Below, one piece after another: positions 3,828-51,629 of a stretch of 64,000 bases of DNA. The translations under genes were made by a program, and so were the position numbers. Source of the stretch: Candidatus Nanoarchaeia archaeon (GTDB taxonomy: Archaea > Nanobdellota > Nanobdellia > Woesearchaeales > UBA525); NCBI GenBank assembly GCA_028279755.1, contig JANQNB010000023.1:13390-77389 (forward strand), read 5' to 3'. Position 1 is the stretch's first letter, and the number at the start of each line of letters is the position of its first letter. The notes beneath the pieces were generated by a model. It ran no database searches. It saw only the letters and a list, made by a program, of their open reading frames with translations, and was not told where the DNA came from.

Positions 3828-3853
3828 CTATGGAAAAACATAAAATACATTCC

Positions 3854-12149: not shown

Positions 12150-13514
12150 TTACTCAGCCCTGCGAGCATGGCCCTTTGTCGCGTCGAGCTTGATTGTATC
12201 GCCGTCTGCGAAGCTGACTGTTCCATTGAGCGTGCCAACGATGCATGGCTTCTTCAGCTCGCGTGAGATGATCGCAGCGTGGCACGTAACCCCGCCCTCG
12301 TCAGTGATGATGCCCACGCTTTTCTCGATCGCGGCGATATAGTCAGGCGTGGTCATAGTGGTGACGAGAATGCGACCAGGTTTCATCTTGTTCAGCTGTG
12401 CTTTGGTCTTGATCACACAAGCCGGAGCTTCGATTGTTCCCGGATAGCAGGACATGCCCCTCACTTCCTTGCTGGCTTTCGCAATCGGCAGGCCTTTCAA
12501 CAAGGATGCAGGAGGTGTTCCTGTATAGATGACCGTCTTGCCATTGACAAGATCATCGTTGTAATGCTCCATCCGTTCTTTGAGGTCGCTAGGGATCTGC
12601 TTGGCGTCGAGTTCCTCGATCGTGAAATACGGCATCTCCTCACTGCGCACGTCGAGCTGCTGTGCCATGGCTGCGAGCAAGGGCATGGAGCAATAGCCGA
12701 AGTGCGTGAGTGCGTCTTTCTTGTCAGTCCTGAGTGTAATGATGTCGCGGAGCACGGGAATCCAGGCTGACAACTCCTTGTCCACAGCATATTTCGCTGC
12801 TTCCTCTTCTGCTTTTGCCTCAAGCTCTTTAAGGTTTGCTTCAAACTCTGCAAGCGTTTTCTCTGGTTCCTTGATCTCCTTGATGCGCTGTCTGTAGAAC
12901 TCCTTTGTGAACGGCGTTCCCTTGAAATGGCGCATGTCTTGCCAGCAGAAACGCTCAGTGTGTTTTTCCAATCCTTCTTCTGAGAAATCGACCGCAAGCT
13001 TGTACAAGGACTCTTGTTCTGCAGTCGCCATGGTGTGCTTGGATGCCACTGCAAGCGTGGTGAAGGAGGTGTTGACATCCTTTGTGTGCTTCTTGAGCAG
13101 GGCCTTGATGCGTCGCTCGACTTCCTGGTCGATGCCATAGCCAAGCGGGTATATCTCAGCGAATACTGGATACGCAATGTCCAAGGCCTTGTGGAATTTC
13201 TCGAGTAACTCGGCATAAGAGAGCCCTGTCATCCTGTCTTGGCGCAGTTTTCTTGCATGTGCATAGAGCTTCTCAACATCTGCATAGAATTGCCTGACCA
13301 GGCCAGCGAAATATGTAACTGCTTGCTGTTTCAGGATTTCCGCAAAAGTCGCATGCTCGTCTTCATCAAGATAAATGCTGGCATCAACTGTCCGGCGATG
13401 GTGCACGCAGAAATCCAGATCCAACAGCTTGCGCATAGGCTCACCCCATGAGTAGTTCAGCAAACTGCTCCAGAGTGGTGTATGCTCTCGTACAACTCCT
13501 TTTTCCCACTTCAC
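12150..13514 (-). CDS. PEP-utilising mobile-domain protein, paralogue 2
   Basis: C-terminal CYPGTIEAPACVI...ILVTTMTTPDYIAAIEKSVGIITDEGGVTCHAAIISRELKKPCIVG. Proposed start is GTG 13514 (MKWEKG...), about 28 nt downstream of AAATATAAAA; ATG 13436 is the alternative. The remainder of the 774-aa track ORF is antisense to cdc48. Confidence 0.7.
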   Translation of the reverse strand: MKWEKGVVREHTPLWSSLLNYSWGEPMRKLLDLDFCVHHRRTVDASIYLDEDEHATFAEILKQQAVTYFAGLVRQFYADVEKLYAHARKLRQDRMTGLSYAELLEKFHKALDIAYPVFAEIYPLGYGIDQEVERRIKALLKKHTKDVNTSFTTLAVASKHTMATAEQESLYKLAVDFSEEGLEKHTERFCWQDMRHFKGTPFTKEFYRQRIKEIKEPEKTLAEFEANLKELEAKAEEEAAKYAVDKELSAWIPVLRDIITLRTDKKDALTHFGYCSMPLLAAMAQQLDVRSEEMPYFTIEELDAKQIPSDLKERMEHYNDDLVNGKTVIYTGTPPASLLKGLPIAKASKEVRGMSCYPGTIEAPACVIKTKAQLNKMKPGRILVTTMTTPDYIAAIEKSVGIITDEGGVTCHAAIISRELKKPCIVGTLNGTVSFADGDTIKLDATKGHARRAE

Positions 13515-13620
13515 CAGGTTTTGGAGAATGCTGTGCGTTTTATATTTTTCTTCGTCGAGAAGCCAGCGTAAACCTTTTAAACCGCCTGGAAATACGGCGC
13601 AGTAACGCTGGTGGTAAGAA

Positions 13621-15918
13621 ATGACTGTTCCTGAAGTGAAACTCAAGGTCGCGGAAGCGATCCAAGACGACGTCAACAAAGGTATCGTCAGGCTCGATTC
13701 CGGGTATATGCGCGAGCTTGACATCAGGCCCGGCAATATTGTCGAGATCAATGGCGAGCGCGGCACTGTCGCGATCGCTGATCGCTCCTTGCCTGGCGAC
13801 ATCGGCCTGAACATCATCCGCATGGACGGCCTGATCAGAAGGAATGCGCGCACGACGATCGGCGAACAGGTCAAGGTGAAGAAAGCCGAGGTGCACGAGG
13901 CGAAGAAAGTCACGATCGCACCTGCCAGAAGCGGCATCATGATCAGAGCGAATCCGCAGATCTTCAAGCGCGGCCTTCTGGGACGAGCAGTCCTGAAAGG
14001 CGACATTGTCGGGCTCGGCGGCACGAAGCGACGAAAGAGCGCGATGAGCGACAACCCCTTCTTCAGCGACATGGACCTCTTCTCAAGCATGATCAACGAA
14101 TCGTTCACCTTCGGGCTCGGCGACCTGAAGTTCGTGGTGGTCGATGTCCAGCCTGCGAAGAAAGCAGTGCTCGTGACTGAGCACACGGACGTGGTCTTCA
14201 ATCCTGAAGCAGTCGAGCTGAAAGACGAGGAGAGCGCGATCGACGTCTCGTACGAGGACATCGGCGGCCTGGACGAAGAGCTGGCGAAAGTGCGCGAGAT
14301 GGTCGAGCTGCCACTGAAGCATCCGGAGATCTTCGAACGCCTCGGGATAGAACCGCCGAAAGGCGTGCTCTTGCACGGCCCGCCAGGCACAGGAAAGACC
14401 CTGCTGGCGAAAGCTGTCGCGAACGAGACCCAGAGCAACTTCTTACTGATCAACGGCCCGGAAATCATGAGCAAGTATTACGGCCAGAGCGAAGAGAATT
14501 TGCGCAAGAAGTTCGAAGAAGCGGAGAAGAACGCGCCTTCCATCATCTTTATCGATGAGATCGACGCGATCGCGAGCAAGCGCGAGGAGAGCAAGGGTGA
14601 AGTCGAGCGGCGCGTAGTTGCGCAACTCTTGGCGATCATGGACGGCTTGAAATCGCGCGGCAAGGTCGTTGTCATCGCCGCGACAAACATCCCGAACCAA
14701 CTCGATCCTGCATTGCGGCGACCTGGACGGTTCGACCGCGAGATCGAAATAGGTGTGCCAGGCGTTGCCGGCAGGCTCAATATCCTTAAGATCCACACGC
14801 GCAACATGCCCTTGGACGACAAAGTCAACCTGAAACGATTGTCTGAAGTCACGCACGGCTTTGTGGGCGCCGACCTGTCCAGCCTTGCGAAAGAAGCGGC
14901 GATGATCGTGCTTCGGCGCGCGCTGCCTGACCTGAACCTGAAGGAAGACGAAGAGATCCCGAAGGAAGTCCTGGAGAAGCTCTTCATCAAGCAGCAGGAT
15001 TTCGTTGACGCGCTCAAGGTTGTGCGTCCGAGCGCGATGCGCGAAGTCCTCGTGCAGGTGCCTGACGTGAAATGGACTGACATCGGCGGCCTGGACGACG
15101 TGAAACAAGAACTTGTCGAAGCTGTCGAATGGCCATTGAAGCATAAGAGCGCGTTCACCCGCTTGGGTGTGAAACCGCCGAAAGGCGTGTTATTGTACGG
15201 GCCGCCAGGCACAGGCAAGACGCTCTTGGCAAAAGCTGTCGCGAACGAAAGCGAGGCAAACTTCATCCTGGTGAAAGGCCCAGAGATGCTGAGCAAATGG
15301 GTCGGCGAGAGCGAGAAGGCGGTGCGCAAGATCTTCGAGAAAGCAAGGCAGACAAGCCCAAGTATTATCTTCTTCGACGAGATTGATAGCATTGCGCCAC
15401 GCCGCGGGCTCGGCGGCAACGAGAACAACAATGTTGCAGAGCGTGTTGTCAATCAATTGCTGACTGAGATGGACGGCTTGCAGGAGCTGCAGGACATCGT
15501 CATTGTAGCAGCAACGAATCGGCCAGACATCATCGACACCGCCTTGCTGCGGCCTGGACGCTTCGATAGGATCATCCTCGCGCCGGTGCCGGACAAGCCG
15601 ACACGGAAGAAGATCTTCGACGTGCACACCAAGGACATGAAGCTGGGCAAGGACGTGAATATCAGCGCGATGGCTGAGCGAACAGACGGCTATGTCGGCG
15701 CTGACATCGAAGCGGTATGCAGGGAAGCAGCGATCATGGCGCTCCGGAAGGACATCAAGGCGAAGAATGTCGGCATGGACTTCTTCGAGGAAGCCCTGAA
15801 CAAGGTGCGCCCGAGCACCACGAAGGAGATCGAGGACAGCTATAAAGAGCTCGAGAGCCACTTCCGGACCGCGCAAGGCGCGCGCATGAAAGACGAGAAG
15901 CCGAGCTATTATGGATAA
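13621..15918 (+). CDS. cdc48: Cdc48/VCP-type AAA+ ATPase (two AAA domains)
   Basis: 765 aa with a double-psi-barrel-like N-domain and two [17 protein letters not shown] Walker A modules with DEID Walker B. Confidence 0.92.
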
Positions 15919-21236: not shown

Positions 21237-21468
21237 CAGGCGCTGGAATAGGGGCTAGCTTAATGCCTTTTCGTTCTCATTCTGGAATGGTTACAACAGC
21301 GCAACATTTAAAAAGAAAATCTCTATTCCGGAGTGATAACGCCTGTTGGCGGGCACGGGGGTGAAGCGCACAATCACAACTATTGCTTCTCACCTCTTTT
21401 TCCCGGGAAGGCCCTTCGCTTTGCGCGAGGGGTTTTCTCGGGTTTGATTTTGAGAACTGGGAATAGGT

Positions 21469-21561
21469 TTAATCCTCTTCTGCTTCTTCAGACTGACAAC
21501 AAAACTCCTTTTCCTTCTCGCTCAACTTCTTCATGTGGCCGCCGCCACATCCGCATCCCAT
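21469..21561 (-). CDS. candidate 30-aa Cys-rich small protein (MGCGCGGGHMKKLSEKEKEFCCQSEEAEED)
   Basis: Too short for the ORF track. GAGGTGA lies 5 nt upstream of the ATG, in an otherwise unassigned gap downstream of the ACT-domain gene. Confidence 0.4.
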   Translation of the reverse strand: MGCGCGGGHMKKLSEKEKEFCCQSEEAEED

Positions 21562-21649
21562 GAATTTCACCTCAAAGTATTTTCTCCCTGAAAGCGCTCC
21601 ACGATATTTATCAATATCGTGCATACTTGAACAAGAATTATATAAATGG

Positions 21650-22315
21650 CTATCTGGTGAGGCTCAGCACTGCTTCATGCGCACGCATCAGGTTCTCCTC
21701 GGCGAGGAAGATGCTAATGCGCGGCTCTGCGCTGATGATCGCAAGGATGTTCACCCCGTAGTTCGCGATCTCGTTCGACAAGCGGGCCATCACTCCTTTG
21801 CTGTCCCAACCGTCAGCCGTCAAAGTGAGCGACAACTCGGCTAAGCCTTCCTGGATCTCGATGATGTTCCCCTCGGGAAAGAAGGTCTTGGCGCGTCCCA
21901 ATGATTCTGAATCGATCATGCACAAGGTCTCGTTCCTGCTCTTGATCAGGCGGAAGATCTCGCTCTTGTAGAATTCCGGATCCTTCATCAGGTCGCTCAG
22001 ATACTTGTACAGGTTCGTGCTGTTCTTGAGCTGCAGGCCCGTGATCTTGGTTTTGGTCGTGACGACCGCTTCCTTCAATGCCTGGCGCACGCCTGCTGTC
22101 AGCTCCTGCACTTCCTCGCTCGCCTTGTAGCGCCGGATCGCGCTGATCACGCTGTCGAGACTGCCTTCAAGGCCGTGCTGCTCTTTCAGGTAGGCAGCGA
22201 GTCCTGAGACGTTGATCACGCCTCTGGCAAGGTCTTTCCTGATGCTCGGGTCCTCATCGATGAGAGCCCACACTCTCTTCGTGATACTTGTCATACCTGC
22301 ACTGAATCCGGTCAA
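21650..22315 (-). CDS. ACT-domain protein with N-terminal HTH-like region
   Basis: C-terminal LSLTLTADGWDSKGVMARLSNEIANYGVNILAIISAE is ACT-like. The start may be the internal MTSITK. Confidence 0.5.
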   Translation of the reverse strand: MTGFSAGMTSITKRVWALIDEDPSIRKDLARGVINVSGLAAYLKEQHGLEGSLDSVISAIRRYKASEEVQELTAGVRQALKEAVVTTKTKITGLQLKNSTNLYKYLSDLMKDPEFYKSEIFRLIKSRNETLCMIDSESLGRAKTFFPEGNIIEIQEGLAELSLTLTADGWDSKGVMARLSNEIANYGVNILAIISAEPRISIFLAEENLMRAHEAVLSLTR

Positions 22316-32797: not shown

Positions 32798-33928
32798 ATG
32801 CACAAGCCTGACTACAACGGCGGCTCGATCCTGAATCTCATGGCCAGCATCATCGCCGCGCGCGGCGGGAAGCGCGAGTACAAAGAGCTTTCCTCGCTGC
32901 GCGCCAAAGAGCTCAAGGATGCTGACAACCTGGTCTTGCTGGTCATTGACGGCATGGGCTATGAATGGTTGCGCAAGCATGGCAAAGGCAGCTTTCTCGC
33001 TTCGCAGGTGCGCGCGCAGCTGACTTCAGTGTTTCCTGCGACAACGTCAGCGGCAATGACTGCAATCTACACCGGCGTGCCGGCGAAGAAGCACGGGCTC
33101 ACGTGCTGGCACATGCTCTTCAAGGAATGCGGCATGGTGCTCGCCGCCCTGCCGCCGCACACCCGGAGCTGGCAGCTCGACCTTGAGCATATGAAACCCC
33201 GGCAAGTGGTGCCGGTAACGAGCGTCTTCGAGAAGATCGACATGCCGAGCTTCCAGATCCAGCCGAAAGAATTCAAGGATTCCGCCTATAACAAGCGCGT
33301 GAGCGCTGGCGCAAAGATCCTGACATACACGAAGTTGGGCGGAATGTTCCGCAAGATCAAGAAAGCGATGAAACAGCCAGGCAAGAAATTCGTGCTCGCG
33401 TACTGGCCAGAACTCGATCTCATCCTGCACCATGCGGGCACGAAGAGCGCGGAAGCGCAGCAGCATTTCAAGGTGCTCGACAAGAAGCTCGCGCGCTTTG
33501 TGAAGAAAGTGAACAACGCCACACTAGTCATCACTGCAGACCATGGTTTGCACGATGTGTCGCGCAATGTCTGGGTGCACAAACATCCGGTGATGGAAGA
33601 AGCGATGTCATTGCCGCTGTGCGGGGAAGGGCGATTAGCGTATGCGTACGTCCATCCTGAGAAGGCGAAGAAATTCGAGAGCTATGTCAAGCGGAAACTG
33701 AAGCACGCGTGCACGATCCATAAGAGCAAAGACCTGCTTTCCTGGTACGGGCCTGGCAAGGCGCATCCGCATCTGCAGCATCGCATCGGGGATTATGTTC
33801 TCATCGCCAAGCCCGGCTGGGCGATCAAGGATCGTGTCTGGGGCGAAGGCGGCTCGATGAGCACCGCACGACACGCAGGCGTTTCAAAAGAAGAGATGCA
33901 CGTGCCGCTGATCGTCATTGAGAAATGA
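32798..33928 (+). CDS. alkaline-phosphatase superfamily protein (nucleotide pyrophosphatase / PglZ-like)
   Basis: 376 aa from MHKPDYNGG. LLVIDGMGYEWL, SVFPATTSAAMTAIYTG and VITADHG motifs. The upstream part of the 661-aa track ORF is antisense to the MCM-like gene. Confidence 0.7.
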   Translation: MHKPDYNGGSILNLMASIIAARGGKREYKELSSLRAKELKDADNLVLLVIDGMGYEWLRKHGKGSFLASQVRAQLTSVFPATTSAAMTAIYTGVPAKKHGLTCWHMLFKECGMVLAALPPHTRSWQLDLEHMKPRQVVPVTSVFEKIDMPSFQIQPKEFKDSAYNKRVSAGAKILTYTKLGGMFRKIKKAMKQPGKKFVLAYWPELDLILHHAGTKSAEAQQHFKVLDKKLARFVKKVNNATLVITADHGLHDVSRNVWVHKHPVMEEAMSLPLCGEGRLAYAYVHPEKAKKFESYVKRKLKHACTIHKSKDLLSWYGPGKAHPHLQHRIGDYVLIAKPGWAIKDRVWGEGGSMSTARHAGVSKEEMHVPLIVIEK

Positions 33929-35354
33929 TTTTGACTATGCCTTTTTCTGCGTCGACTTCGATAAGATCACCGTCCTTGAAGATGCGTGTGGCGTCTTTTG
34001 TGCCAATCACACAGGGCGTACTCATCTCCCTGGCAACAATCGCGGCGTGACAGCTCAAGCCGCCTTCGTCAGTGACCATCGCAGCAGCTTTCTCTATAGC
34101 AGGAACATAATCAGGGGTTGTCATGCCGGTAATGAGAATGTCGCCCTGCTTGACCTTATCGATCTCTTTTGCTGAGTTAAGTACTCTTGCAACTCCTGTG
34201 ACTTTTCCTCTATGCGCGACTTGACCTTTTACCACATTCTCATCCAGCAAGTCACCTTCAACAATCTTCAGGATATTCTCATCCGGACCATCAAGATCAT
34301 ACAACTGCATGTCCTTGAGTATGAAACCGTACCATTTCCTACGCTTATTGATTCGTTCTGTGTCGAGCTGCTCACCCTCGAGTCCTTTTTCAATCTCCCA
34401 ATAGTACGCTGCCGATACACTTTGCAAACCGAGCTTCTTCTGAATCGCTTCGAAAAGATCGTTCAATGCATAGGCTGATTCGATCAATGCTTCAAGGCGC
34501 CGAAACCTGACAAGTGGCAATTGCTGCGCATCGACAAAGAGCCTGAGCAAGCGCTCGCTGAATTTGTATTTCGATGTCAGCGCTGCTTGCCTCTCCTTGA
34601 TTGCCGCTGTTTCTTCTTGCATTGCTTGCAATTCCTTTTCAGGATCTTTCATGGCTTCAATCTCTGCTGTGAAGGTTTCAAACGACACAGGCTCAAACCA
34701 GATACCGTGATCTTCAAGCCATTTGTACTGGTCATACACTTTCCTGATCGCTGACTCTGGCGCCTTGTCGACTGCGAGTTGCAGCATGGCTGCTCTCTTC
34801 AATTGCATGGTGGATGGCTCTGTCGACGAGATCATGCTTGTCATGGTGTCGAGAAAAACAGAGAAATCCTTTTTCGGGTCGATGTGCTTGGCGAGTTCAG
34901 CCTCAATCTCTGCACGCATCCATTCCTCAGGACCCAATGGAGGGAAGAGGTGGCTCATGAGCTTGATCGCTCGTTGCGTGTATTCCTGGAATCCTTGCAG
35001 CAGGTCTGTGAAGTCTTGCCCTTTTGCCCAGGAGACGATGTCTTCGCTATCTTGCAGTGCTTTGGCAAAATACTTGCTGAGAAACCTATCGTCCTTTTCT
35101 GCCTCAGCGATCATCGTCTGCTGGAGACGCGCGAATTCGTCCTCAGAATGGTAAACATCGTAATTCAGCAAAACGACTGTTGGCATTCTTGAATCAAAAC
35201 CGAGTTCTGGATTAATGATAGCATCGCCGACTCGCAAGTAGGAGTTCATGAGTGGGCTGTTCGCCCTTTTGACCACCTTATACCAATTGACGCCAGTGAT
35301 GTCAGGTAGTGTATCTGCTTGTACAACATTGTGTTCTTTGTCGAGCATTTTCAT
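33915..35354 (-). CDS. PEP-utilising mobile-domain protein, paralogue 3
   Basis: Start MKMLDKEHN overlaps the stop of paralogue 4 (ATGA at 35351-35354). C-terminal GDILITGMTTPDYVPAIEKAAAMVTDEGGLSCHAAIVAREMSTPCVIG. Confidence 0.75.
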   Translation of the reverse strand: MKMLDKEHNVVQADTLPDITGVNWYKVVKRANSPLMNSYLRVGDAIINPELGFDSRMPTVVLLNYDVYHSEDEFARLQQTMIAEAEKDDRFLSKYFAKALQDSEDIVSWAKGQDFTDLLQGFQEYTQRAIKLMSHLFPPLGPEEWMRAEIEAELAKHIDPKKDFSVFLDTMTSMISSTEPSTMQLKRAAMLQLAVDKAPESAIRKVYDQYKWLEDHGIWFEPVSFETFTAEIEAMKDPEKELQAMQEETAAIKERQAALTSKYKFSERLLRLFVDAQQLPLVRFRRLEALIESAYALNDLFEAIQKKLGLQSVSAAYYWEIEKGLEGEQLDTERINKRRKWYGFILKDMQLYDLDGPDENILKIVEGDLLDENVVKGQVAHRGKVTGVARVLNSAKEIDKVKQGDILITGMTTPDYVPAIEKAAAMVTDEGGLSCHAAIVAREMSTPCVIGTKDATRIFKDGDLIEVDAEKGIVKIISQ

Positions 35355-36415
35355 TCGATCTTCCTCACAACACCTTTCTCGGCGTCCACTTCGACGATGT
35401 CTCCATCGTTCAGGTCTTTTGTCGCGCGTTGCGTGCCGATGACACACGGCTTCTTGAGTTCGCGCGCGACGATCGCCGCATGACATAAGACGCCGCCGCC
35501 GTCAGTGACAAAAGCTGCGCTTTTTTCGATTAAAGGAACGTACTCTGGACGGGTCATTCCAGCAACAAGGATATCTCCTGGCTTGAAGTCTTTCGCTTTG
35601 TCAGGATCATGCACGATCTGTACACGGCCTTTCGCAGTTCCGGGATATGCTGTCTGACCTTCAATCTCATCGCTTTGTTTGCCGAGCACGAGTTCTTCTG
35701 CTTTTGTGACATCATCTCCAAGCAGGATGTGCATTTTGCCTTCGTGGAAATAGAATGCGCTTTGTTTGTTGCGTTGTTCGAGCATTGCTCTGTCTGGCAG
35801 TGTTCCATCTTGGAGGTATTGCTCAAATTCGTCTTTGGTCATTGCCCGGATAAGTTTTGCTGGGTAGCCAGTTTTTTTCTCGTGAAAAGCTGACAGCTGC
35901 ATGGTGAATTCCAGGAATTTGGTGAACAATGGCTCTGCATACACTCGAGCGTCTTCGAATTGTGGCAAATATTTTTTGAGAAGCTCGGCCGGAAGGTAGT
36001 CGACCAGCACCTTGACTTGGATGTGGTAGGGATAGTACTCGAGAACATTGTTGTGCAATCGCTGGAACTCTTCTAAGCTCACATCTTTACTCATGAGCTC
36101 GTCAAAAACCGCCATAAACTCATCAGTTGTCTTCTTCAGCAGCATGCATAGTTTGTCCACAAGTGCAGGGTCTTTCGCGATCTGCGCGATGAGTTCTTCG
36201 CTGAATCGTTTCTTGTCGGCGATGGGCTGGAAGCCTGCGCCCGTGCCATCATGCCAGGTGATGATGGTCTGGTGAACATAGCGCTTGATGTTGTCGGCAA
36301 AGGGCATCCGTGAATAGAATTCGCCAAAACGCGTGAGATCCACTGGCGGCCATCTGCCACTGAATTGGCTTTCCCACTTCGTAGCCGCGAGCGCTTGCTG
36401 AATCGCTGAGTCCAT
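35351..36415 (-). CDS. PEP-utilising mobile-domain protein, paralogue 4
   Basis: C-terminal GDILVAGMTRPEYVPLIEKSAAFVTDGGGVLCHAAIVARELKKPCVIG. Confidence 0.75.
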   Translation of the reverse strand: MDSAIQQALAATKWESQFSGRWPPVDLTRFGEFYSRMPFADNIKRYVHQTIITWHDGTGAGFQPIADKKRFSEELIAQIAKDPALVDKLCMLLKKTTDEFMAVFDELMSKDVSLEEFQRLHNNVLEYYPYHIQVKVLVDYLPAELLKKYLPQFEDARVYAEPLFTKFLEFTMQLSAFHEKKTGYPAKLIRAMTKDEFEQYLQDGTLPDRAMLEQRNKQSAFYFHEGKMHILLGDDVTKAEELVLGKQSDEIEGQTAYPGTAKGRVQIVHDPDKAKDFKPGDILVAGMTRPEYVPLIEKSAAFVTDGGGVLCHAAIVARELKKPCVIGTQRATKDLNDGDIVEVDAEKGVVRKIE

Positions 36416-39477: not shown

Positions 39478-39526
39478 AACATTTAAATACTAAGAGCTTT
39501 CAGGAGTATGAAAAGGAGTGTGAGGC

Positions 39527-40342
39527 ATGGCGGAATCCGTTGTTTCTGACAAGCACCAGATCAATCGCATCAAGATGCACGTCCAAGGTCTTGATGAGAA
39601 TATCCAGGGCGGGGTTCCTGAAGGCAATATCACGCTCGTTTCCGGCGCAGCAGGCACGATGAAGAGCAGCGTCTGCTTCAACGTGCTCTATCACGAGGCT
39701 GTAGCTGGCAAGAACAGCATCTACATCTCGCTCGAGCAGTCGGCTGAATCGCTCGTCAATCACATGATGAACATGGATTACGACATGCGCCGCATCAACC
39801 TCGTGATCATCAAGGAGCTTGCTGAACTGAAGACCCGGATGGCGGAATTACAGGACCAAACGCTCGGCAGCATGATTATCGTCGACATGGGCACGATCCG
39901 CAAGGAGATCCGCGACGTGAACACGGACAACAACAAGAGCTGGCTGAACGTGATCAAGAACGTGGTGAAGAAGATCCACACTGATGCAGGCTGCCCGCTC
40001 TTCGTGCTTGACTCGCTCAGCGCGCTCTACGTGCTCTCGCGCTTCGAGAACCCCAGAATCGAGCTGTTCTACATTTTTGAGTACCTGCGCGACATGCGCA
40101 TCACGAGCTTCCTGATTTCTGAGATGCCCCTGGATGGCAGCAAGTATTCTGAATATGAGATCGAGGATTTCCTCGCTGACGGCATCATCACCATCAGGCT
40201 GACGCCCTTCCGGCGCCAGGTCGTGCGCGAGATCGCGGTTGTGAAGATGCGCGCCACAGCGTGTAATAACGACATCTTCAGCCTTGAATTCCGGAACGGC
40301 CAGTTCCAGGCCCTCTACGGCGGCCAGAATCCCTTGCTTTAG
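39527..40342 (+). CDS. KaiC/RadA-like RecA-superfamily ATPase domain protein with atypical P-loop
   Basis: GLDENIQGGVPEGNITLVSGAAGTMKSS... The Walker A reads GAAGTMKS (Met where the consensus has Gly); FVLDS is Walker-B-like. Confidence 0.65.
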   Translation: MAESVVSDKHQINRIKMHVQGLDENIQGGVPEGNITLVSGAAGTMKSSVCFNVLYHEAVAGKNSIYISLEQSAESLVNHMMNMDYDMRRINLVIIKELAELKTRMAELQDQTLGSMIIVDMGTIRKEIRDVNTDNNKSWLNVIKNVVKKIHTDAGCPLFVLDSLSALYVLSRFENPRIELFYIFEYLRDMRITSFLISEMPLDGSKYSEYEIEDFLADGIITIRLTPFRRQVVREIAVVKMRATACNNDIFSLEFRNGQFQALYGGQNPLL

Positions 40343-40356
40343 ACCCTTTTCTATTA

Positions 40357-40564
40357 CCACGCTGCCTTGGCATAGAGACCAGGCGCGAATACGAGCGCAG
40401 CTCGTGATATGAGCGCCTGGGACATACCCGCGCAGAGCGCGGGATAAGTGCCGCAGCGTGGAGAGAGGTGCCATCACCGCGGCGCTCTCGCTACGCATGG
40501 TTCGCGAGTGTCTTCGCGAACCTGGGAACGCAGTGACCATGCCGCGCCAAGGCGGTGATGGCAC
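40357..40564. repeat. two adjacent GC-rich nested-hairpin elements (E3 40357-40461, E1 40468-40564); candidate structured ncRNA or MITE-like repeat
   Basis: Perfect pairings: CCACGCTGC/GCAGCGTGG (9 bp), CCAGGCGC/GCGCCTGG (8), CCCGCGC/GCGCGGG (7), GTGCCATCACCGC/GCGGTGATGGCAC (13), GCATGG/CCATGC and TTCGCGA/TCGCGAA. No plausible ORF. Confidence 0.55.
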
Positions 40565-40572
40565 GAGCGCCC

Positions 40573-40635
40573 AAAAGACCAAAATCCGTTCAAAATCAGA
40601 GAAATGCCCTGAAATCTAGAGAAAGCCTTATAAAC
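40573..40635 (+). promoter_or_regulatory. six phased A-tracts followed by a TATA box (CTTATAAAC, 40627-40635)
   Basis: A-tracts begin at 40573, 40581, 40592, 40602, 40612 and 40622 (about 10-bp period), directly upstream of the TATA-like box. Confidence 0.45.
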
Positions 40636-40827
40636 CTTTTATGCAATCACTATGGCTTAATGAACGACAGCAGTATGATCGGGATTCACAAGCGACTCGC
40701 CCTGTCATATCGCTGGCTCTTCTTCCCTTTTGCTCGCCCGGTGTACGCGTAAACCGTGTGTAACCGGGCGTCATGGGCTACAAAACTCAAAACTTCTTCT
40801 TTTTCCTCGACTCCACAGGTGAAAAAA

Positions 40828-41313
40828 ATGCAAGATCCGGCACCAGCGGCCCCTTCACGGAGGCCACCACTCACAGCAGTGCATCCGATCACTGGCTATA
40901 AATCCTCAAGCATCGAACAAGCAGTAGCTGGGTACAATCGGGATGCCCAAGCACTTACTGACCAGATTACAGCAGGGGTACACAGTGCTGTGTGGGAAGA
41001 CCATAAGAGAGGATACCCACATATACGCATTGGCGACGAAGGCTACGATCTCAACGCAGCATTGGACGAGGTCTACCAAGCAGGAGTCGCGTCAGCGCAA
41101 GAGCTGCTACACCTAACCCAAGGAGCAGCTTCCAAAGCAGTGCAAGCAGCGATTGGTAAACAACTCCTCCACGAGATTGGACGAGTAGCTGGAGAAGCGC
41201 ATCCAGAAAGCGTCCATACAACGCTGGAAGACATGGCAGTGAGTTATGGAGTTCCTCGGATGCAGGTCCAGGCGACTCGAACTCGCGTGCTAGGTAATAT
41301 TGTGTGGATATGA
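40828..41313 (+). CDS. ORFan P1 (161 aa), Ala/Gln-rich, helical
   Basis: Start MQDPAPAAP, with AGGTGA 7 nt upstream. The stop overlaps the start of P2 (ATGA). Confidence 0.55.
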   Translation: MQDPAPAAPSRRPPLTAVHPITGYKSSSIEQAVAGYNRDAQALTDQITAGVHSAVWEDHKRGYPHIRIGDEGYDLNAALDEVYQAGVASAQELLHLTQGAASKAVQAAIGKQLLHEIGRVAGEAHPESVHTTLEDMAVSYGVPRMQVQATRTRVLGNIVWI

Positions 41314-41717
41314 TGCAACTCCAACAGGTATTGACGGTGGCGGGGCCGCTCGAGGCCCGCCTGCGGAACACGCCCACCACAGGGCAGCCATTGTTCGACG
41401 GCAACGGCCAGATCATCTGGGCCAGCGGTCCTGACACGAACGCGCGCATCGGCCAGATCGTGTTCGAACGTGTCAGCGAAGCCATCAGCGCGTGCGCCGT
41501 CGGCGAGGGCCGCCTCTATACCCGCTTGGAATCGTGCCTGAACACAGCGACGATAAACATCTTGACGCAATATCCTGAGGTCAAGCCTGCGGAAGCGCGC
41601 CGCATCGCGTTCGAGATGATCTGGCGCGGCATCAACCTGCTTCTCCGCTGGATCCCGCCAGGATTGCAGGCGACAATGGAGGCCCTGGCGAACTTCGCCC
41701 ACAGGACAGCAGGGTGA
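41310..41717 (+). CDS. ORFan P2 (135 aa), distant paralogue of P1 and P3
   Basis: ATG 41310 overlaps the P1 stop. Shares an N-x2-(L/I)-x-(E/Q)-(V/I)-(Y/V)-x3-V-x2-A segment with P1 and P3. Confidence 0.55.
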   Translation: MMQLQQVLTVAGPLEARLRNTPTTGQPLFDGNGQIIWASGPDTNARIGQIVFERVSEAISACAVGEGRLYTRLESCLNTATINILTQYPEVKPAEARRIAFEMIWRGINLLLRWIPPGLQATMEALANFAHRTAG

Positions 41718-41726
41718 TCTGAAGGT

Positions 41727-42218
41727 ATGACAATTCGATCCTATGTCGGAGCGCTGCCATCTGAACCAGACTGCACGCTATACGAGACCCAAATGCGAGA
41801 CATTGAAAAGCGAAATCCGCGCGGATTGGCGCATGTCGAAACAAAAGTGCGTCGTGGCCTGGCCGGGCATCTCTGTGGTCGTCTGGGGAATGGCAAGCCT
41901 ATCGATGTCAAATTCTTAGCAGGACAATATCAAAACGGCGTGGCACTCATGCAGCAACGCACAGGAGTAAACACGAATATCGCTGAGGTGTACGTGCTCA
42001 GAGTCGTGCAGGAAGCGGTCGAGACCGCAGCGATGAACGTGATGGCAAATAATTCCCACCTTGACGGATTTGCTGACTTGGCGCAACGAGTCATTGAGAA
42101 GCTCATGCCGCTTGTCGGGACGCCATACGCTGCCGCTGTCACACTGACTCGCGTACAGGACCTTGCAGACCATCTACGACAACCTTTAAGAGTCGTGCCA
42201 GATCACTCTGACGCATGA
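41727..42218 (+). CDS. ORFan P3 (163 aa), distant paralogue of P1 and P2
   Basis: GAAGGT upstream. The stop overlaps the HAD gene start (ATGA at 42215-42218). Confidence 0.55.
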   Translation: MTIRSYVGALPSEPDCTLYETQMRDIEKRNPRGLAHVETKVRRGLAGHLCGRLGNGKPIDVKFLAGQYQNGVALMQQRTGVNTNIAEVYVLRVVQEAVETAAMNVMANNSHLDGFADLAQRVIEKLMPLVGTPYAAAVTLTRVQDLADHLRQPLRVVPDHSDA

Positions 42219-42865
42219 AACTCGTCTGTTTCGATCTCGATGGCACCCTGATCGATGAGTTTGAAGGTCATGAGTACTGGGGCACCTTGCACCGTACTAT
42301 CGAGGGTGAGGTAGGCCAGCGCAAGAATCTCCAGCGCATGGCTGACTACAAGGCTGGCAAGATCTCATATCGGGACTGGGTCGATCTTGATCTTGGCGAC
42401 TTCCAGAAGCTGGGCGCGACGAAAGCCGACTTCGAGAAAGCGGCACAGAAGCACGCGCTCTTCCCTGGCGCGAAAGAAGCGGTTCGAGAACTGCACGCGC
42501 GCGGGTACAAGCTCGCAGTGATCAGCGGCAGCCTGAACATCTTCATTGATTTTCTATTTCCTGATCATCCCTTTGATGACGTGTTCGCGAATGAAGTGTG
42601 GTTTGACGACGAAGGAAAGATTGCCGGATGGAAAGATACGGTGTACGAGGACGGTGCGAAGCATAAGGCCTTGCGGATGATCTGCGAACGCGAAGGGATT
42701 GACATCAAGGACAGCGTGTTCGTCGGCAACTATGACAACGACATCGACGCGATGGAAGCGGCCGGGTTCGCGATCGCCTTCTTGCCGAAGAGCGAGGGAG
42801 TGCGCGCGGTTGCTGACGTCGTCATCGAGAAGAAGGACGTACGAGAAATTCTCAAGCACATTTAG
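42215..42865 (+). CDS. HAD-superfamily phosphatase, phosphoserine-phosphatase-like (HAD-IB)
   Basis: VCFDLDGTLID (motif I), ISGS (motif II region), GNYDNDIDAMEAAG (motif IV). Confidence 0.75.
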   Translation: MKLVCFDLDGTLIDEFEGHEYWGTLHRTIEGEVGQRKNLQRMADYKAGKISYRDWVDLDLGDFQKLGATKADFEKAAQKHALFPGAKEAVRELHARGYKLAVISGSLNIFIDFLFPDHPFDDVFANEVWFDDEGKIAGWKDTVYEDGAKHKALRMICEREGIDIKDSVFVGNYDNDIDAMEAAGFAIAFLPKSEGVRAVADVVIEKKDVREILKHI

Positions 42866-42870
42866 TGCAA

Positions 42871-42961
42871 GGCTGTCGCGGCGCTTGTCGCTTCTGCATC
42901 AGAAGTGCGTCAGATTCGGTGAGTCTGACCGGGTACCACTAACCGCGCCAAGGCGACAGCC
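42871..42961. repeat. third copy (E2) of the GC-rich hairpin element, filling the convergent intergenic gap
   Basis: GGCTGTCGC-GGCGC-...-GCGCC-AAG-GCGACAGCC has the same outer architecture as E1 (X-GGCGC...GCGCC-AAG-X'). Inner hairpins are CTTCTG/CAGAAG and GTCAGA/TCTGAC. Confidence 0.55.
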
Positions 42962-43269
42962 TAATCTTCTAACAATTTTGCGCTGCTGATATTGTCAGCC
43001 AGAACGATCGTTTCCTTCGCGCAGAACGGGCAGCGCTTGGGCGTGATGTTCGCGCGCGAGAAGGTGAAGCCGCACGAGGTGCAGGCATAGCCGGTCTTGC
43101 TCAACGGCGGGCTCGCGTCGTAACGCATCGCGTCCGCGTGCTCCTGGACCGTGAGGCCGCGGCATTGCATGCAGACGAGCGTGCTGCCGTCTTTCGCGTA
43201 CTTCATATCACCCAGCGGCACTTGTTGGAGACACCTGCCGCATTTCATCAGCATGGCATCCTTGTCCAT
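42961..43269 (-). CDS. double zinc-ribbon protein (102 aa)
   Basis: Start MDKDAMLMK. Four CxxC pairs: CGRC...CMQC and CTSC...CPFC. Confidence 0.6.
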   Translation of the reverse strand: MDKDAMLMKCGRCLQQVPLGDMKYAKDGSTLVCMQCRGLTVQEHADAMRYDASPPLSKTGYACTSCGFTFSRANITPKRCPFCAKETIVLADNISSAKLLED

Positions 43270-43357
43270 AGGAGAGGTAAGGGAAAGCAAGTATTTAATG
43301 ATTCTCCTCGAAAAATATAAAACAGGGAGTTTCTCAATCAGGGTGAGAGGTGAGGCA

Positions 43358-44428
43358 GTGAACAAAGCAGGCGGTCCGGTATCGAAGCAGGAACTCATCG
43401 ATCAGCACATGGCGATTCTGCGGGGCCTGCAATACGAGTCAGGGCTGTTCGCAGCCTCGCGCAAGGATGTCGATACTGGCTATGACAAGAGCTGGCTGCG
43501 CGACAATTTCTATGAATGCCTCGCCTTTGAGGTGCTTGGCGAGTGGGAGGTCGTGCGCAAGACGTATCGCGCGCTCTTGGACGTGTTCAAGAAGTACGAG
43601 GAGAAGATCGACTGGGCGATCACGCACAAGCCGACAGAGCGCTGGCAGTATATCCACGCGCGCGTGCATCCTGAGACGTTCGAGGAATTCTGGGAGGACT
43701 GGGGGAATAAGCAGAACGATTCGGTTGCTGCGATATTATGGCGGGTCGGCGAGCTGGAGAAAGCCGGTTTTTCCGTGCTTGAGAGCGAGGATGACCGTCG
43801 GATCGTGCAGAAACTCGTGCAATACCTGGCCACGATCGAGTACTGGCATGATTTCGATTCGGGCATGTGGGAAGAGAGCGAGGAAGTGCACGCTTCTTCT
43901 ATCGGTGCGTGCGTCGCCGGCCTGCAGGCGGTGAAAGCCATCGGTTTCGACGTGCCGGAAGACCTGATCAAGAACGGGAAAGCAACATTGCGCCAAATGC
44001 TGCCGCGCGAGAGCGCGACCAAGTTTGTGGACCTGGCCTTGTTGAGCCTGATCTGGCCGTACCGGGTCGTGACAGTGAAGGAACGGGACGCGATCCTGAA
44101 GAATGTCGAATATTTATTGCTACGGCGGAAAGGCGTGATCCGGTACAAGAACGACCACTACTACAACAAGAACGAGGACGGATATTCCGAAGAAGCGGAG
44201 TGGTGCTTCGGCCTGTCCTGGCTGGCGATCATCTACGAGCAGCTCGGCAAGAAGCGCAAGACCAAGAAATTCGTCAAGGCCATGATCGAGACGCAGGATG
44301 ATGAAGGCTTTATCCCGGAATTGTATTATTCCAATACTGAAGAGCCGAACGACAACGCTCCGCTGGGCTGGGCGGAAAGCTTGTTCGTCGTCGCCTTGCA
44401 CAAGGTGAATGAGAAGCTGTTGGAGTGA
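43358..44428 (+). CDS. glycoside hydrolase family 15-like (glucoamylase / phosphorylase-kinase alpha-beta type) protein
   Basis: SWLRDNFY, GNKQNDSVAAILW, DSGMWEESEEVHASSIGA and LGWAESLFVVA motifs. Proposed GTG start at 43358 follows GGTGAG and a TATA (AAAAATATAAAA); ATG 43298 is the alternative. Confidence 0.7.
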   Translation: MNKAGGPVSKQELIDQHMAILRGLQYESGLFAASRKDVDTGYDKSWLRDNFYECLAFEVLGEWEVVRKTYRALLDVFKKYEEKIDWAITHKPTERWQYIHARVHPETFEEFWEDWGNKQNDSVAAILWRVGELEKAGFSVLESEDDRRIVQKLVQYLATIEYWHDFDSGMWEESEEVHASSIGACVAGLQAVKAIGFDVPEDLIKNGKATLRQMLPRESATKFVDLALLSLIWPYRVVTVKERDAILKNVEYLLLRRKGVIRYKNDHYYNKNEDGYSEEAEWCFGLSWLAIIYEQLGKKRKTKKFVKAMIETQDDEGFIPELYYSNTEEPNDNAPLGWAESLFVVALHKVNEKLLE

Positions 44429-49657: not shown

Positions 49658-50296
49658 ATGGAAATAGTTCAAAAACGACCAACTGTGGTCTATGACATTC
49701 TCGGGCCAATGTATCACTATGATGCAGCAGGATGGCCTGAGGACAAAGGGGCGGTAGTACCGCTTATTGAGCTCATCAAGAGACATAATTTTGCAGCAGC
49801 GACGCTACGAGAAGAATCAGAAGTGGAAGAACGAATGCTTGCTTCTGGGCTTACAACACCATTAATCACGCCAGGATTCGTTGAAAGCGCGATATACGTG
49901 CAGCGAGCAGGCGGGCTACCGGTTATCGTTACTGCAGGTACGCCAGGCACTGCAGCCATCACCCTCGAAGCAGCTGCGAGGGATTATCAAGAACGAACCG
50001 GAGAGCGTGTCGACATGGCCAGGTTATTCCCTGATTCGTGTGTCCATAGCACCCTTGACATCGGAAGCAAAGCAGAGCCAGCCACGTGGATGCGAGCAGT
50101 GTGGGAGAACCACGGGATCGTGCCTGTCGTCGCCACATATGAAGATTCTCTGAAGAACCTTGAAGCAGCCACTGCAGGACTACAAGGGCATGGTTTCCAT
50201 GTTGTCCACGACGGCCCTATTCAGCGCGTTGCGCCAAATCTTTATAAGGGCAGCATGCGCGCCCTGCAACCAGTGCTTGAAGAGCTGTGCAGGTGA
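49658..50296 (+). CDS. hypothetical protein
   Basis: 212-aa ORF with GGGGGAG upstream and no confident motif. Confidence 0.5.
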   Translation: MEIVQKRPTVVYDILGPMYHYDAAGWPEDKGAVVPLIELIKRHNFAAATLREESEVEERMLASGLTTPLITPGFVESAIYVQRAGGLPVIVTAGTPGTAAITLEAAARDYQERTGERVDMARLFPDSCVHSTLDIGSKAEPATWMRAVWENHGIVPVVATYEDSLKNLEAATAGLQGHGFHVVHDGPIQRVAPNLYKGSMRALQPVLEELCR

Positions 50297-50300
50297 CCAT

Positions 50301-51629
50301 ATGCCGCGACTTGATCACGAGAAATACGATTTCTTGTGGAAAGTCGATAATATCTCATTTCTTTTTACCAGTTATTGGCTTCATGGTCTCTATCGTAAGA
50401 TCGACTGCTTCATCGCGTGCAAAGGAAGCGATTGGAGCTTCTACATAGAGAAAGAAGAGCGGGCACGGCTGTCAAAACAAGGCTTGAAGCTTTTCGAGGA
50501 AGAGTTGAAGCCCTTCAAGAAAGAGATGGGTGTTGTCCTTGCAGAGGCCGACAAGCTCTTTCCGGAAATCGAGGCATGCGATCCGAGGACCTTCTCTGAT
50601 GAGCGGCTGGCCGACGCGTTCAAACAGCTCGTCGTGTTCGCTCAGCGTCTCTGGGAGCTCTTCTTCCACACTGAATATTTCAACCACGACCTGGTACAAG
50701 AAAAAGCTGAAACGCTGGGGATTATAGGTAACGAATACCTCACGAGTAGTCCGAAAGAAGTCATTCAGTCAAAAGAGCGCTATGAGCGCTGCAAACTCTC
50801 ACTTCACTCAACTCCTGAAGCGATCAAGAAGCACGCGAAGAAATACAGTTTCATCAAGTACAACGAGTCAGGACCAACCCTCACGCCACAGATGCTCACA
50901 GAAGAACTGGCAACTATCACCAGTCCTGAAAAGATCATCGATGAAATCGATGCGAAGCACGACGCTGTCATCGCAAAACGCAAGGAGCATCCCCTCGCCA
51001 CCGCGATTCGCGAGATGGCAGAGCTCAAGTTCATCGTCCGGAGCTATATCAATAAGCTGTGGTTCGGCAACAACCTTATGAAGAGGTATCTCGACGAGAT
51101 TCAGAAGCGTACCGGCATCCAGAATTTTGACAACTATGACTGGCACGAAGTGCTCCGGGCACTGAAAGGGGAAAAAGTCGACGTCCCAAAACGCGACGTG
51201 TATGTCTGGGGAAAATTCAATGATTGGGAACCAGTCATTGGCGAGGAAGCGCGGCCGTTGGTCGATCAAATCATGAGCATCAAGCCCGGACAGACGACCA
51301 TGACCGGCATGATCGGCAACCGAGGTACGTACACTGGCACCGTCAAGATCATTCCTTTCGACGTCGAAGCAGACCTGCCAAGCCTGATTGCAGAGATGAA
51401 GCAAGGCCAAGTTCTTGTCACTGGTTCAACCGGCCCGGAGATGATCAAAGCATGCCACAAAGCAGGCGCGATCGTGACAGAAGAAGGGGGGATCTGCAGC
51501 CATGCCGCGATCGTCTCGCGCGAGCTTGGGATCCCATGCGTCATCAGGACGGAAATCGCGACACGCATTCTCAAAGACGGTGATCGTGTCGAAGTCGACG
51601 CAGAACGCGGCATCGTGCGGAAGCTCTAG
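50301..51629 (+). CDS. PEP-utilising mobile-domain protein, paralogue 5
   Basis: Start MPRLDHEKYDFLWK, with AGGTGA 5 nt upstream. C-terminal GQVLVTGSTGPEMIKACHKAGAIVTEEGGICSHAAIVSRELGIPCVIR. Confidence 0.75.
   Translation: MPRLDHEKYDFLWKVDNISFLFTSYWLHGLYRKIDCFIACKGSDWSFYIEKEERARLSKQGLKLFEEELKPFKKEMGVVLAEADKLFPEIEACDPRTFSDERLADAFKQLVVFAQRLWELFFHTEYFNHDLVQEKAETLGIIGNEYLTSSPKEVIQSKERYERCKLSLHSTPEAIKKHAKKYSFIKYNESGPTLTPQMLTEELATITSPEKIIDEIDAKHDAVIAKRKEHPLATAIREMAELKFIVRSYINKLWFGNNLMKRYLDEIQKRTGIQNFDNYDWHEVLRALKGEKVDVPKRDVYVWGKFNDWEPVIGEEARPLVDQIMSIKPGQTTMTGMIGNRGTYTGTVKIIPFDVEADLPSLIAEMKQGQVLVTGSTGPEMIKACHKAGAIVTEEGGICSHAAIVSRELGIPCVIRTEIATRILKDGDRVEVDAERGIVRKL

Follow-up and report, generated by a model that had tools for sequence, protein, structure and literature searches.

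A dispersed family of intergenic hairpin elements with an invariant AAG bulge in GC-rich Woesearchaeota

What is the strongly folding block that follows a kaiC-like gene in the genome of a Candidatus Nanoarchaeia archaeon? We analyzed 64,000 nucleotides (nt) of contig JANQNB010000023.1, referred to below as the window. An earlier note on this DNA had singled out positions 40357 to 40564 as two head-to-head copies of a structured element. We found that the two halves of the block, E3 and E1, are diverged and oppositely oriented members of one dispersed hairpin family and are not sequence copies. A third member, E2, lies 2.3 kb downstream in the window. The elements and their repeats are as follows.

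40357 to 40461, minus strand: E3, family member, 105 nt
40357 to 40365 and 40453 to 40461: outer stem of E3, CCACGCTGC/GCAGCGTGG
40379 to 40391 and 40408 to 40420: inner hairpin arms of E3, CCAGGCGC.../...GCGCCTGG
40427 to 40433 and 40437 to 40443: second hairpin of E3, CCCGCGC/GCGCGGG
40462 to 40467, no strand: spacer of 6 nt, AGAGAG, that separates the 5' end of E3 from that of E1, the head-to-head junction
40468 to 40564, plus strand: E1, family member, 97 nt
40468 to 40480 and 40552 to 40564: outer stem of E1, GTGCCATCACCGC/GCGGTGATGGCAC
40495 to 40501 and 40536 to 40542: inner repeat of E1, GCATGGT/ACCATGC
40499 to 40507 and 40514 to 40522: innermost repeat of E1, GGTTCGCGA/TCGCGAACC
40481 to 40487 and 40565 to 40571: alternative pairing, GGCGCTC/GAGCGCC
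42870 to 42962, plus strand: E2, third family member in the window, 93 nt, AGGCTGTCGC-GGCGC...GCGCC-AAG-GCGACAGCCT

All of the nested inverted repeats described earlier were located in the window sequence at these positions, and the block does begin just behind the KaiC-family gene, 14 nt past its stop codon. We folded positions 40345 to 40580 and compared the energies with those of dinucleotide shuffles. The plus strand gave -121.4 kcal/mol (z = -6.7 against 200 shuffles) and the minus strand -120.7 kcal/mol (z = -6.4); 0 of 200 shuffles matched the fold energy of this region. In a GC-corrected sliding-window scan of the whole 64 kb, the block ranked among the top structure outliers on both strands. 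The minimum-energy folds reproduced the three-way junction predicted for E3 and the long irregular hairpin predicted for E1. The open reading frames (ORFs) that cross the block are mechanical only: one of 53 codons without a Pfam match, and one of 244 codons antisense to kaiC.

Are E3 and E1 copies of each other? Their identity is 54%, against a shuffled baseline of 50 ± 3%. Hence, they are not. What they share is a design, X-GGCRC...GYGCC-AAG-X', read on the plus strand in E1 and on the minus strand in E3, and this design occurs again at 42870 to 42962. Read on its own strand, E3 has a 9-bp closing stem, a GGCA/UGCC helix, an AAG bulge, and a three-way junction with the hairpins CCCGCGC-UCU-GCGCGGG and CCAGGCGC...GCGCCUGG. 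E1 has a 13-bp closing stem, a GGCGC/GCGCC helix, the AAG bulge, and a long irregular inner hairpin. The interior of E2 is a three-way junction with a small and a longer hairpin, like that of E3; the element starts 4 nt past the stop codon of a HAD phosphatase gene, and its last 2 nt overlap the stop codon of a convergent minus-strand ORF (42961 to 43398). The head-to-head arrangement, with 5' ends 6 nt apart, and the common design of E3 and E1 were thus real, whereas the word "copies" had to be given up. A pseudoknot or switch formed by the alternative pairing listed above did not hold up either, since it has no counterpart in E2 or in other members. GGCGCUC recurs within the family, and GAGCGCC is also found inside E3 (40411 to 40417).

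E2, along with elements in relatives L003, L004, and L005, was found with the descriptor "stem X, GGC...GCC, 3 nt, X-prime." Six full-length members then served to build a covariance model (R1), and R1 and descriptors were used together in a census of the window and of related Woesearchaeota (DPANN archaea) contigs, which for each relative covered pieces of 20 kb or less. It returned about 21 members, 19 of them clean, plus variants.

Window: E3 (minus), E1 (plus), and E2 (plus)
L003/L357 genome: four
L004: one
L005/L355 genome: four
L006/L359 genome: seven in 20.8 kb
L346: two
L352/L353: one
Metagenome contigs: L284 and L294

Within the 64-kb window, R1 and the descriptors together found three copies only. 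E2 matched R1 with 32.8 bits (E = 2e-5) and E1, which is outside the seeds, with 27.7 bits (E = 4e-4); E3 scored 89 bits (E = 3e-19) and is itself a seed sequence. Every member lies in a locus of at least 54% GC. None was found in 29 related loci of 53% GC or less, and a few GC-rich loci are also empty.

The 19 clean members share one architecture. A closing stem of 6 to 13 bp, unconstrained in sequence, ends in G-C and C-G pairs. It is followed by the core 5'-...GC/GG...CC/AAG/GC...-3' (slashes mark helix and bulge borders), in which AAG is unpaired on the 3' strand and the adjoining helix starts with two G-C pairs. In 12 of the 19 members this helix reaches 4 bp or more, and in the remaining 7 it consists of 3 bp and a mismatch. 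Interiors typically combine a small hairpin with a longer one, giving the three-way junction of E3 and E2, or form one long irregular hairpin as in E1, and total length ranges from 91 to 143 nt. The loop motifs CCUCCCUCCGGUCCGGG and GCCCUGCAUGAAUCGGGC recur across genomes. The C-G, G-C, and G-C pairs and the AAG are invariant across the clean members. To judge the bulge by itself, we took all instances of "at least an 8-bp stem, a 3-nt bulge, and a 3-bp helix" in 359 kb of Woesearchaeota DNA: AAG accounted for 11 of 58 three-nt bulges where about 1 was expected, roughly a 10-fold excess, and one of the 11 (in L016) was a false positive in AT-rich coding sequence.

Covariation in the closing stem is strong. 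In the alignment of the closing module, 93.9% of cells are paired, and 10 of 13 pairs have changed on both sides, in 60 cells. None of 500 column shuffles reached the covariation score, and sliding the 3' partner by 1 to 3 columns dropped the paired cells to 28 to 47%. A full-length alignment of one subfamily showed compensatory changes in 13 of 29 pairs. Because AAG is kept in every copy while the stems stay perfect, we think that constraint, such as a factor reading the helix-bulge-helix core would impose, explains the pattern better than simple palindrome correction. We conclude that a structure-defined hairpin family with a covarying closing stem and an invariant AAG bulge exists.

Perhaps the family was already known under another name? 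Rfam 15 at gathering thresholds gave a single match in the whole window, a tRNA-Arg at 1520 to 1594, and hence none in the block; a permissive scan of 40200 to 40800 returned only noise with E above 1. ARAGORN found no tRNA in the block, and no terminator-like or sigma-70-like sites, nor a T-run after the hairpin, were present in 39500 to 41500. An exact 33-mer search of one genome per species had zero matches, and BLASTN of the block against phage and plasmid collections had none. Degenerate patterns of the family searched in viral contigs hit GC-rich phage genes by chance, and all of these matches failed the stem descriptor, so a viral link was dropped. A stricter pattern gave 98 matches in metagenome contigs, of which only L284 and L294 are real members. 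By-eye comparison with 5S rRNA, signal recognition particle RNA, RNase P RNA, H/ACA and C/D RNAs, SECIS elements, Y RNA, kink-turns, and the GAAA-tetraloop receptor showed that their defining motifs are absent. The kink-turn, the L7Ae site, has a 3-nt bulge followed by tandem sheared G-A pairs; here, Watson-Crick G-C and C-G pairs flank the bulge in 19 of 19 members. The integron attC core comparison was likewise negative, and no description of the family was found in Rfam, in the phage and plasmid collections, or in the literature searched. The earlier impression that the block fits no known RNA, tRNA, or attC site was therefore upheld. Since some 20 further elements exist, the covariation is strong, and neither Rfam nor a known miniature inverted-repeat transposable element (MITE) claims the family, the block is not a mere terminator palindrome.

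We turn to where the elements lie. They occupy intergenic spacers of every kind (tandem, convergent, and divergent), and relative to neighboring genes both orientations occur (about 8 sense and 7 antisense). E2 and L355 10673-10791 are placed exactly between convergent genes. Some members are paired: E3/E1 head to head, and L359 10849/10965 and 17320/17467 in tandem. Density reaches 7 per 20.8 kb in L359, with four elements each in L355 and L357. Occupancy of a given site varies. The spacer between a beta-propeller gene and kaiC holds an element in L003, L004, and L352/L353; in the window, L001, L347, L349, and L354 it is empty, about 50 nt long, with the stop codon beside the TATA box. The L352 insert sits between the last beta-propeller codons and an intact "AAGTGAAACATTTATAAA" stop-plus-promoter sequence, ahead of the conserved kaiC TATA box.

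The subfamily of an element is not tied to its location. E2 and L005 5648-5762 both lie past a HAD gene and are of different types, while L003 3754-3865, L005 5648-5762, and L284 are alike at three different loci. Most pairs of members are 46 to 62% identical, against the baseline of 50 ± 3%, and the best pairs (67 to 68%) are between genomes. Between L003 and L004, kaiC third codon positions are 83% identical and the same-site elements 67%; in those elements 3 of 9 closing pairs are doubly substituted and none is unpaired.

How might such a family arise? Our preferred reading, to which we give a probability of roughly 45%, is that these are lineage-specific, structure-defined intergenic hairpin elements of GC-rich Woesearchaeota, akin to bacterial repetitive extragenic palindromes (REPs) or MITEs and recognized at the bulge by a putative factor. 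The placement of the elements between genes in either orientation, the doublets, the variation between genomes, and the upkeep of the hairpin speak for this reading, and a MITE census had singled out a Woesearchaea genome with 105 MITEs per Mb, although the hairpin family found here is not described there (PMC11602168). What acts would be the folded hairpin, in single-stranded DNA when the genome is replicated or repaired, in RNA cotranscribed passively, or in both. If a lineage-specific factor acting in trans reads the helix-bulge-helix core, the invariance of the bulge amid otherwise drifting sequence would be accounted for. The elements would spread or be replaced like bacterial REPs and REPINs (REP doublets forming hairpins) or other nonautonomous foldback elements. 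Once placed, they may secondarily serve as stable stem-loops at mRNA ends, and their spacers may be sites of gene content turnover, as the orphan A-B-C cassette of the window, described below, would exemplify.

Several observations weigh against this reading of the elements as REP- or MITE-like. Copies within a genome are only 46 to 61% identical, barely above shuffled sequence, whereas active REPIN and MITE families are near-identical. The flanks of the 19 members contain no direct repeats that could be target-site duplications, and there are no conserved terminal inverted repeats, as the terminal stems of these members vary between copies. No transposase, recombinase, integrase, or HUH gene is present in the 64-kb window or in the annotated related loci, and the same holds for a RAYT (Y1 HUH) gene. 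The ORFs nearest the block, A, B, and C, were considered as a transposase and rejected: they have no database matches and no HUH motif. REP-RAYT systems have been reported only from Bacteria (PMC6006769), and of the Y1 transposases only the IS200 type occurs in Archaea, according to Quentin et al. (PMC6006769). Copy counts rest on the pieces of each relative noted above. The paired fraction is partly inflated by construction, because some members were found with descriptors that require a stem; the bulge identity test and the R1 matches outside the seeds are unaffected by this. Finally, host-level selection on an RNA could account just as well for stems that stay perfect as copies diverge and for the compensatory change between copies at one site.

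Do the elements then act as RNA? On the strand that carries AAG, the closing module contains 7 G-U pairs, compared with 4 A-C mismatches, which would be G-U pairs on the other strand. In 11 of 16 members, the fold of the complementary strand is at least as stable. Neither the G-U versus A-C counts nor the comparison of fold energies between strands revealed a strand preference. TATA-like boxes were seen at a plausible distance upstream of a few members; a consistent upstream box is absent in most, and several boxes are the promoter of a neighboring gene. No oligo-T tracts follow the elements. With TATA boxes inconsistent, G-U and A-C counts of 7 and 4, and complements that fold at least as well, the data do not point to a discrete noncoding RNA (ncRNA) gene at the block. 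In its genomic behavior the block is closer to intergenic repeats than to a gene devoted to an RNA. The elements may act as DNA or as RNA.

We wondered if the elements might be cis-acting RNA modules, that is, cotranscribed stem-loops that protect or define transcript ends or relaxed bulge-helix-bulge (BHB) substrates cut by EndA to give processed or circular RNA. Elements fill spacers straight after stop codons (14 nt in the case of E3, 4 nt in that of E2), E2 and the L355 element lie between convergent genes, and compensatory change is strong. The 3'-strand geometry of outer helix, 4-nt helix strand, and 3-nt bulge equals one half of a BHB motif, the helix beside the bulge having the lengths given above, and DPANN endonucleases are known to accept relaxed motifs. 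However, the mixed orientation of the elements, their presence in divergent promoter spacers, and the missing G-U strand signal speak against such modules. Of a BHB motif, moreover, neither a second 3-nt bulge nor an inner helix is present; on the 5' strand, the 3 nt past the helix vary and run into the junction. BHB motifs need no specific bulge sequence, yet AAG is invariant here. We regard cis-acting RNA modules as unlikely.

A multicopy family of independently transcribed small ncRNAs of about 100 nt, in which variable interiors serve different functions on a shared scaffold bound by a protein at the AAG bulge, would fit the conserved and covarying scaffold and the loop motifs shared across genomes. 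It would also fit the TATA-like boxes about 25 to 50 nt upstream of L284 (ATATAATGATA), L004 (TTTATAAA), L003 571-676, and L359 17320, the last of which precedes two tandem elements and has no other gene to serve. However, most members have no such box at a usable distance, several boxes belong to neighboring genes, and both downstream oligo-T terminators and strand asymmetry are missing. E3 and E1 abut, E2 directly follows coding sequence, one insertion alters the last codons of a gene, and orthologous sites in close relatives lack the element. Independent transcription of the family is accordingly improbable.

Before weighing recombination, we describe the genes around the block. Their order is MFS transporter (minus strand), FG-GAP beta-propeller, KaiC, HAD phosphatase, and GH15.

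39527 to 40342, plus strand: KaiC-family ATPase gene (Pfam PF06745, E = 3e-36)
40565 to 40827, no strand: AT-richer spacer outside the elements, in which CAAAATC is directly repeated (x2) and a TATA-like box, AAAGCCTTATAAACC, lies at about 40622 to 40636
40828 to 41313 (A), 41310 to 41717 (B), and 41727 to 42218 (C), plus strand: translationally coupled orphan ORFs between the elements and HAD
42215 to 42865, plus strand: HAD-IB phosphatase gene, with E3/E1 on its left and E2 on its right

The KaiC-like protein has orthologs of 83 to 90% identity in Woesearchaeota metagenome-assembled genomes. In the closest relatives, L001 and L002, HAD starts about 45 to 60 nt past the kaiC stop; in the window the gap is 1.87 kb and holds the structured block, the AT-richer spacer, and A-B-C, the last of which overlaps the HAD ATG. 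ORFs A to C have no Pfam, PHROG, NCBIfam, or PADLOC matches and no match in related loci, being absent from all relatives. ORF C has no homolog among 5.8 billion protein clusters, and ORF A has none among 1.84 billion representatives. GC content at third codon positions (GC3) is 0.44 in A and 0.52 in C, against 0.72 in host genes. By its composition and distribution, A-B-C looks like a recent foreign insertion.

Further features of this locus deserve mention. The region of AAAGCCTTATAAACC (40618 to 40665), with ATG GCT TAA about 20 nt later, is similar to the stretch that holds the HAD promoter and start in relatives, L001 among them; it may be the ancestral HAD promoter, now driving an A-B-C-HAD operon. 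Just 3' of E1, ACGAGCGC (40563 to 40570) repeats a motif inside E3, and CAAAATC occurs twice at 40580 to 40597; these repeats may be the remnant of a further, degraded element or a protein-binding site. Upstream of kaiC (39478 to 39526 in the window; L001, L003, L004, L347-L349, L352, L354) the promoter is highly conserved: a TTTATAAA box, about 25 nt, the Shine-Dalgarno-like AAAAGAGGGTGAG, and ATG, abutting the upstream stop codon in genomes free of elements. In L348, the beta-propeller-kaiC spacer (3903-4141) contains about 100 nt of GC-rich sequence between the two copies of an 11-bp direct repeat, GTAGCGAATAA; the repeat has the appearance of a target-site duplication around another kind of small insertion, in a spacer that in other genomes holds AAG-bulge elements.

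Could the elements be recombination sites? Folded single-stranded DNA sites like attC, defined by structure and extrahelical bases, might capture and shuffle genes at hot spots such as the kaiC-HAD spacer. The elements do combine very low identity, a conserved hairpin, a short core, extrahelical bases on one strand, lengths of 91 to 143 nt, and positions at gene 3' ends. Pairs with the minus orientation on the left and plus on the right bracket HAD (L005), a HAD paralog (L006), and A-B-C-HAD (window), the gene content of the kaiC-HAD spacer varies in nearly every relative, and the codon usage of A and C is foreign-looking. On the other hand, RYYYAAC/GTTRRRY core sites and a co-oriented array are absent, as is an integrase from the window and related loci, and the same hot spot gains genes without elements too (L348 and L357). 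The outer stems are variable yet perfectly paired, which would not be expected if crossovers took place within the site. We consider gene capture at attC-like sites quite improbable. An ordinary terminator palindrome or a chance GC-rich palindrome, for which only the position just past a stop codon speaks, can be set aside as extremely improbable, given the lack of a T-tract or terminator-like site, a fold z score of about -6.5, some 20 related elements whose bulge is invariant and whose stem covaries, and the elements in divergent promoter spacers.

The minus-left, plus-right arrangement around HAD in several genomes also suggested that the switch in orientation was a signal of replication polarity. 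In the L003 genome, L357 4295-4774 is an origin-like region that lies about 1.5 kb upstream of kaiC and has cdc6/orc1 on one side and the beta-propeller gene on the other. It contains three boxes resembling origin recognition boxes (TTCCAGTGGAAAT, ATTCCTGTGGAAAG, and inverted GGTTCCAAAGGAAATG) and an AT-rich stretch with tandem repeats of about 24 nt. Minus-strand elements stand on both sides of this region, and the polarity idea was dropped for this reason. The same spacer houses a different foldback element (L357 about 4560-4730), with 16-bp perfect terminal inverted repeats, GGGCTCTTAGGCAAAT/ATTTGCCTAAGAGCCC, around about 140 nt of GC-rich sequence.

Two observations concern other parts of the window. 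The strongest plus-strand structure outlier (GC-corrected z about -4.6) is 21341 to 21480, in the 414-nt spacer 21237 to 21650; it is preceded by ATTTAAAAAG at about 21308, has no Rfam match, and could be an unannotated ncRNA. Five paralogous proteins (3830 to 5311, 12150 to 14474, 33915 to 35486, 35351 to 36415, and 50160 to 51629) have as their sole Pfam match a C-terminal PEP-utilizing-enzyme mobile domain (PF00391), and their long N-terminal parts have no match.

What would the family mean? A dense, structure-conserved repeat family is unexpected in DPANN archaea, because their genomes are small and have little noncoding DNA; in one relative, density reaches one element per 3 kb. A bolder proposal, which we hold to be doubtful, is that the elements are sites of an archaeal system that reads folded single-stranded nucleic acid by its shape and an extrahelical AAG, with structure-dependent recognition and almost no sequence conservation beyond about 10 nt. 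Such a system might be one of recombination or transposition, parallel to attC/IntI or REP/RAYT, marking spacers where foreign orphan genes such as A-B-C are taken up, or the sites might be a family of endonuclease-processed, possibly circular RNAs. If the hairpins are mobile or recombinogenic, REP- or attC-type biology, in which an enzyme reads folded single strands and not sequences, would extend to Archaea, and the invariant AAG bulge would point to a lineage-specific enzyme. If they are RNAs, Archaea would have a new kind of RNA scaffold, whose bulge is a defined binding site for protein. In practical terms, the elements can mislead screens for ncRNAs, and they mark variable spacers where orphan genes appear.

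How do the elements compare with known systems? An intrinsic terminator has a T-run, which is absent here after the hairpin and in the downstream flanks. Like the archaeal BHB motif, the elements have a 3-nt bulge between a long helix and one of about 4 bp, and this bulge follows the 4-nt strand on its 3' side. Unlike that motif, which has two 3-nt bulges on opposite strands of a 4-bp helix, they have one bulge of invariant sequence and a multihelix junction in place of helix h'. MITEs are similarly small, noncoding, and intergenic, with terminal inverted repeats that fold back, and a Woesearchaea genome is among the MITE-densest of archaea (PMC11602168). However, the present elements have no target-site duplications, their copies share only 2 to 3 bp beside the bulge and not terminal repeats, and no parent insertion sequence was found.

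The likeness to bacterial REPs, REPINs, and bacterial interspersed mosaic elements, the substrates of RAYTs (Y1 HUH transposases), goes further. These, too, are intergenic hairpins, often past stop codons and between convergent genes, in both orientations, single or in inverted or tandem pairs, with no target-site duplication and no adjacent protein gene. They show compensatory upkeep of the hairpin, a small conserved tag plus a stem irregularity for recognition, and strain-variable content. The differences are as follows. A REP is 20 to 40 nt and a REPIN of about 100 nt is made of two REPs, unlike the 91- to 143-nt units with branched interiors found here. The REP tag is GTAG or CGTC, whereas the core here is GC/GG..CC/AAG/GC with no GTAG or CGTC at the foot of the stem. 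REP copies are highly similar within a genome, and copies here are about 50 to 60% identical. REPs and REPINs have been reported only from Bacteria (PMC3733652, PMC6006769), and the host here is a DPANN archaeon. Integron attC sites differ from the elements in having R''/R' (AAC/GTT) cores at their ends, where the core here is internal, and the elements are in mixed orientations with no intI gene. By analogy, and not by membership, the elements nonetheless resemble attC sites in being defined by structure at low identity: both have a short core, one strand marked by extrahelical bases, no fixed length, and a place downstream of genes.

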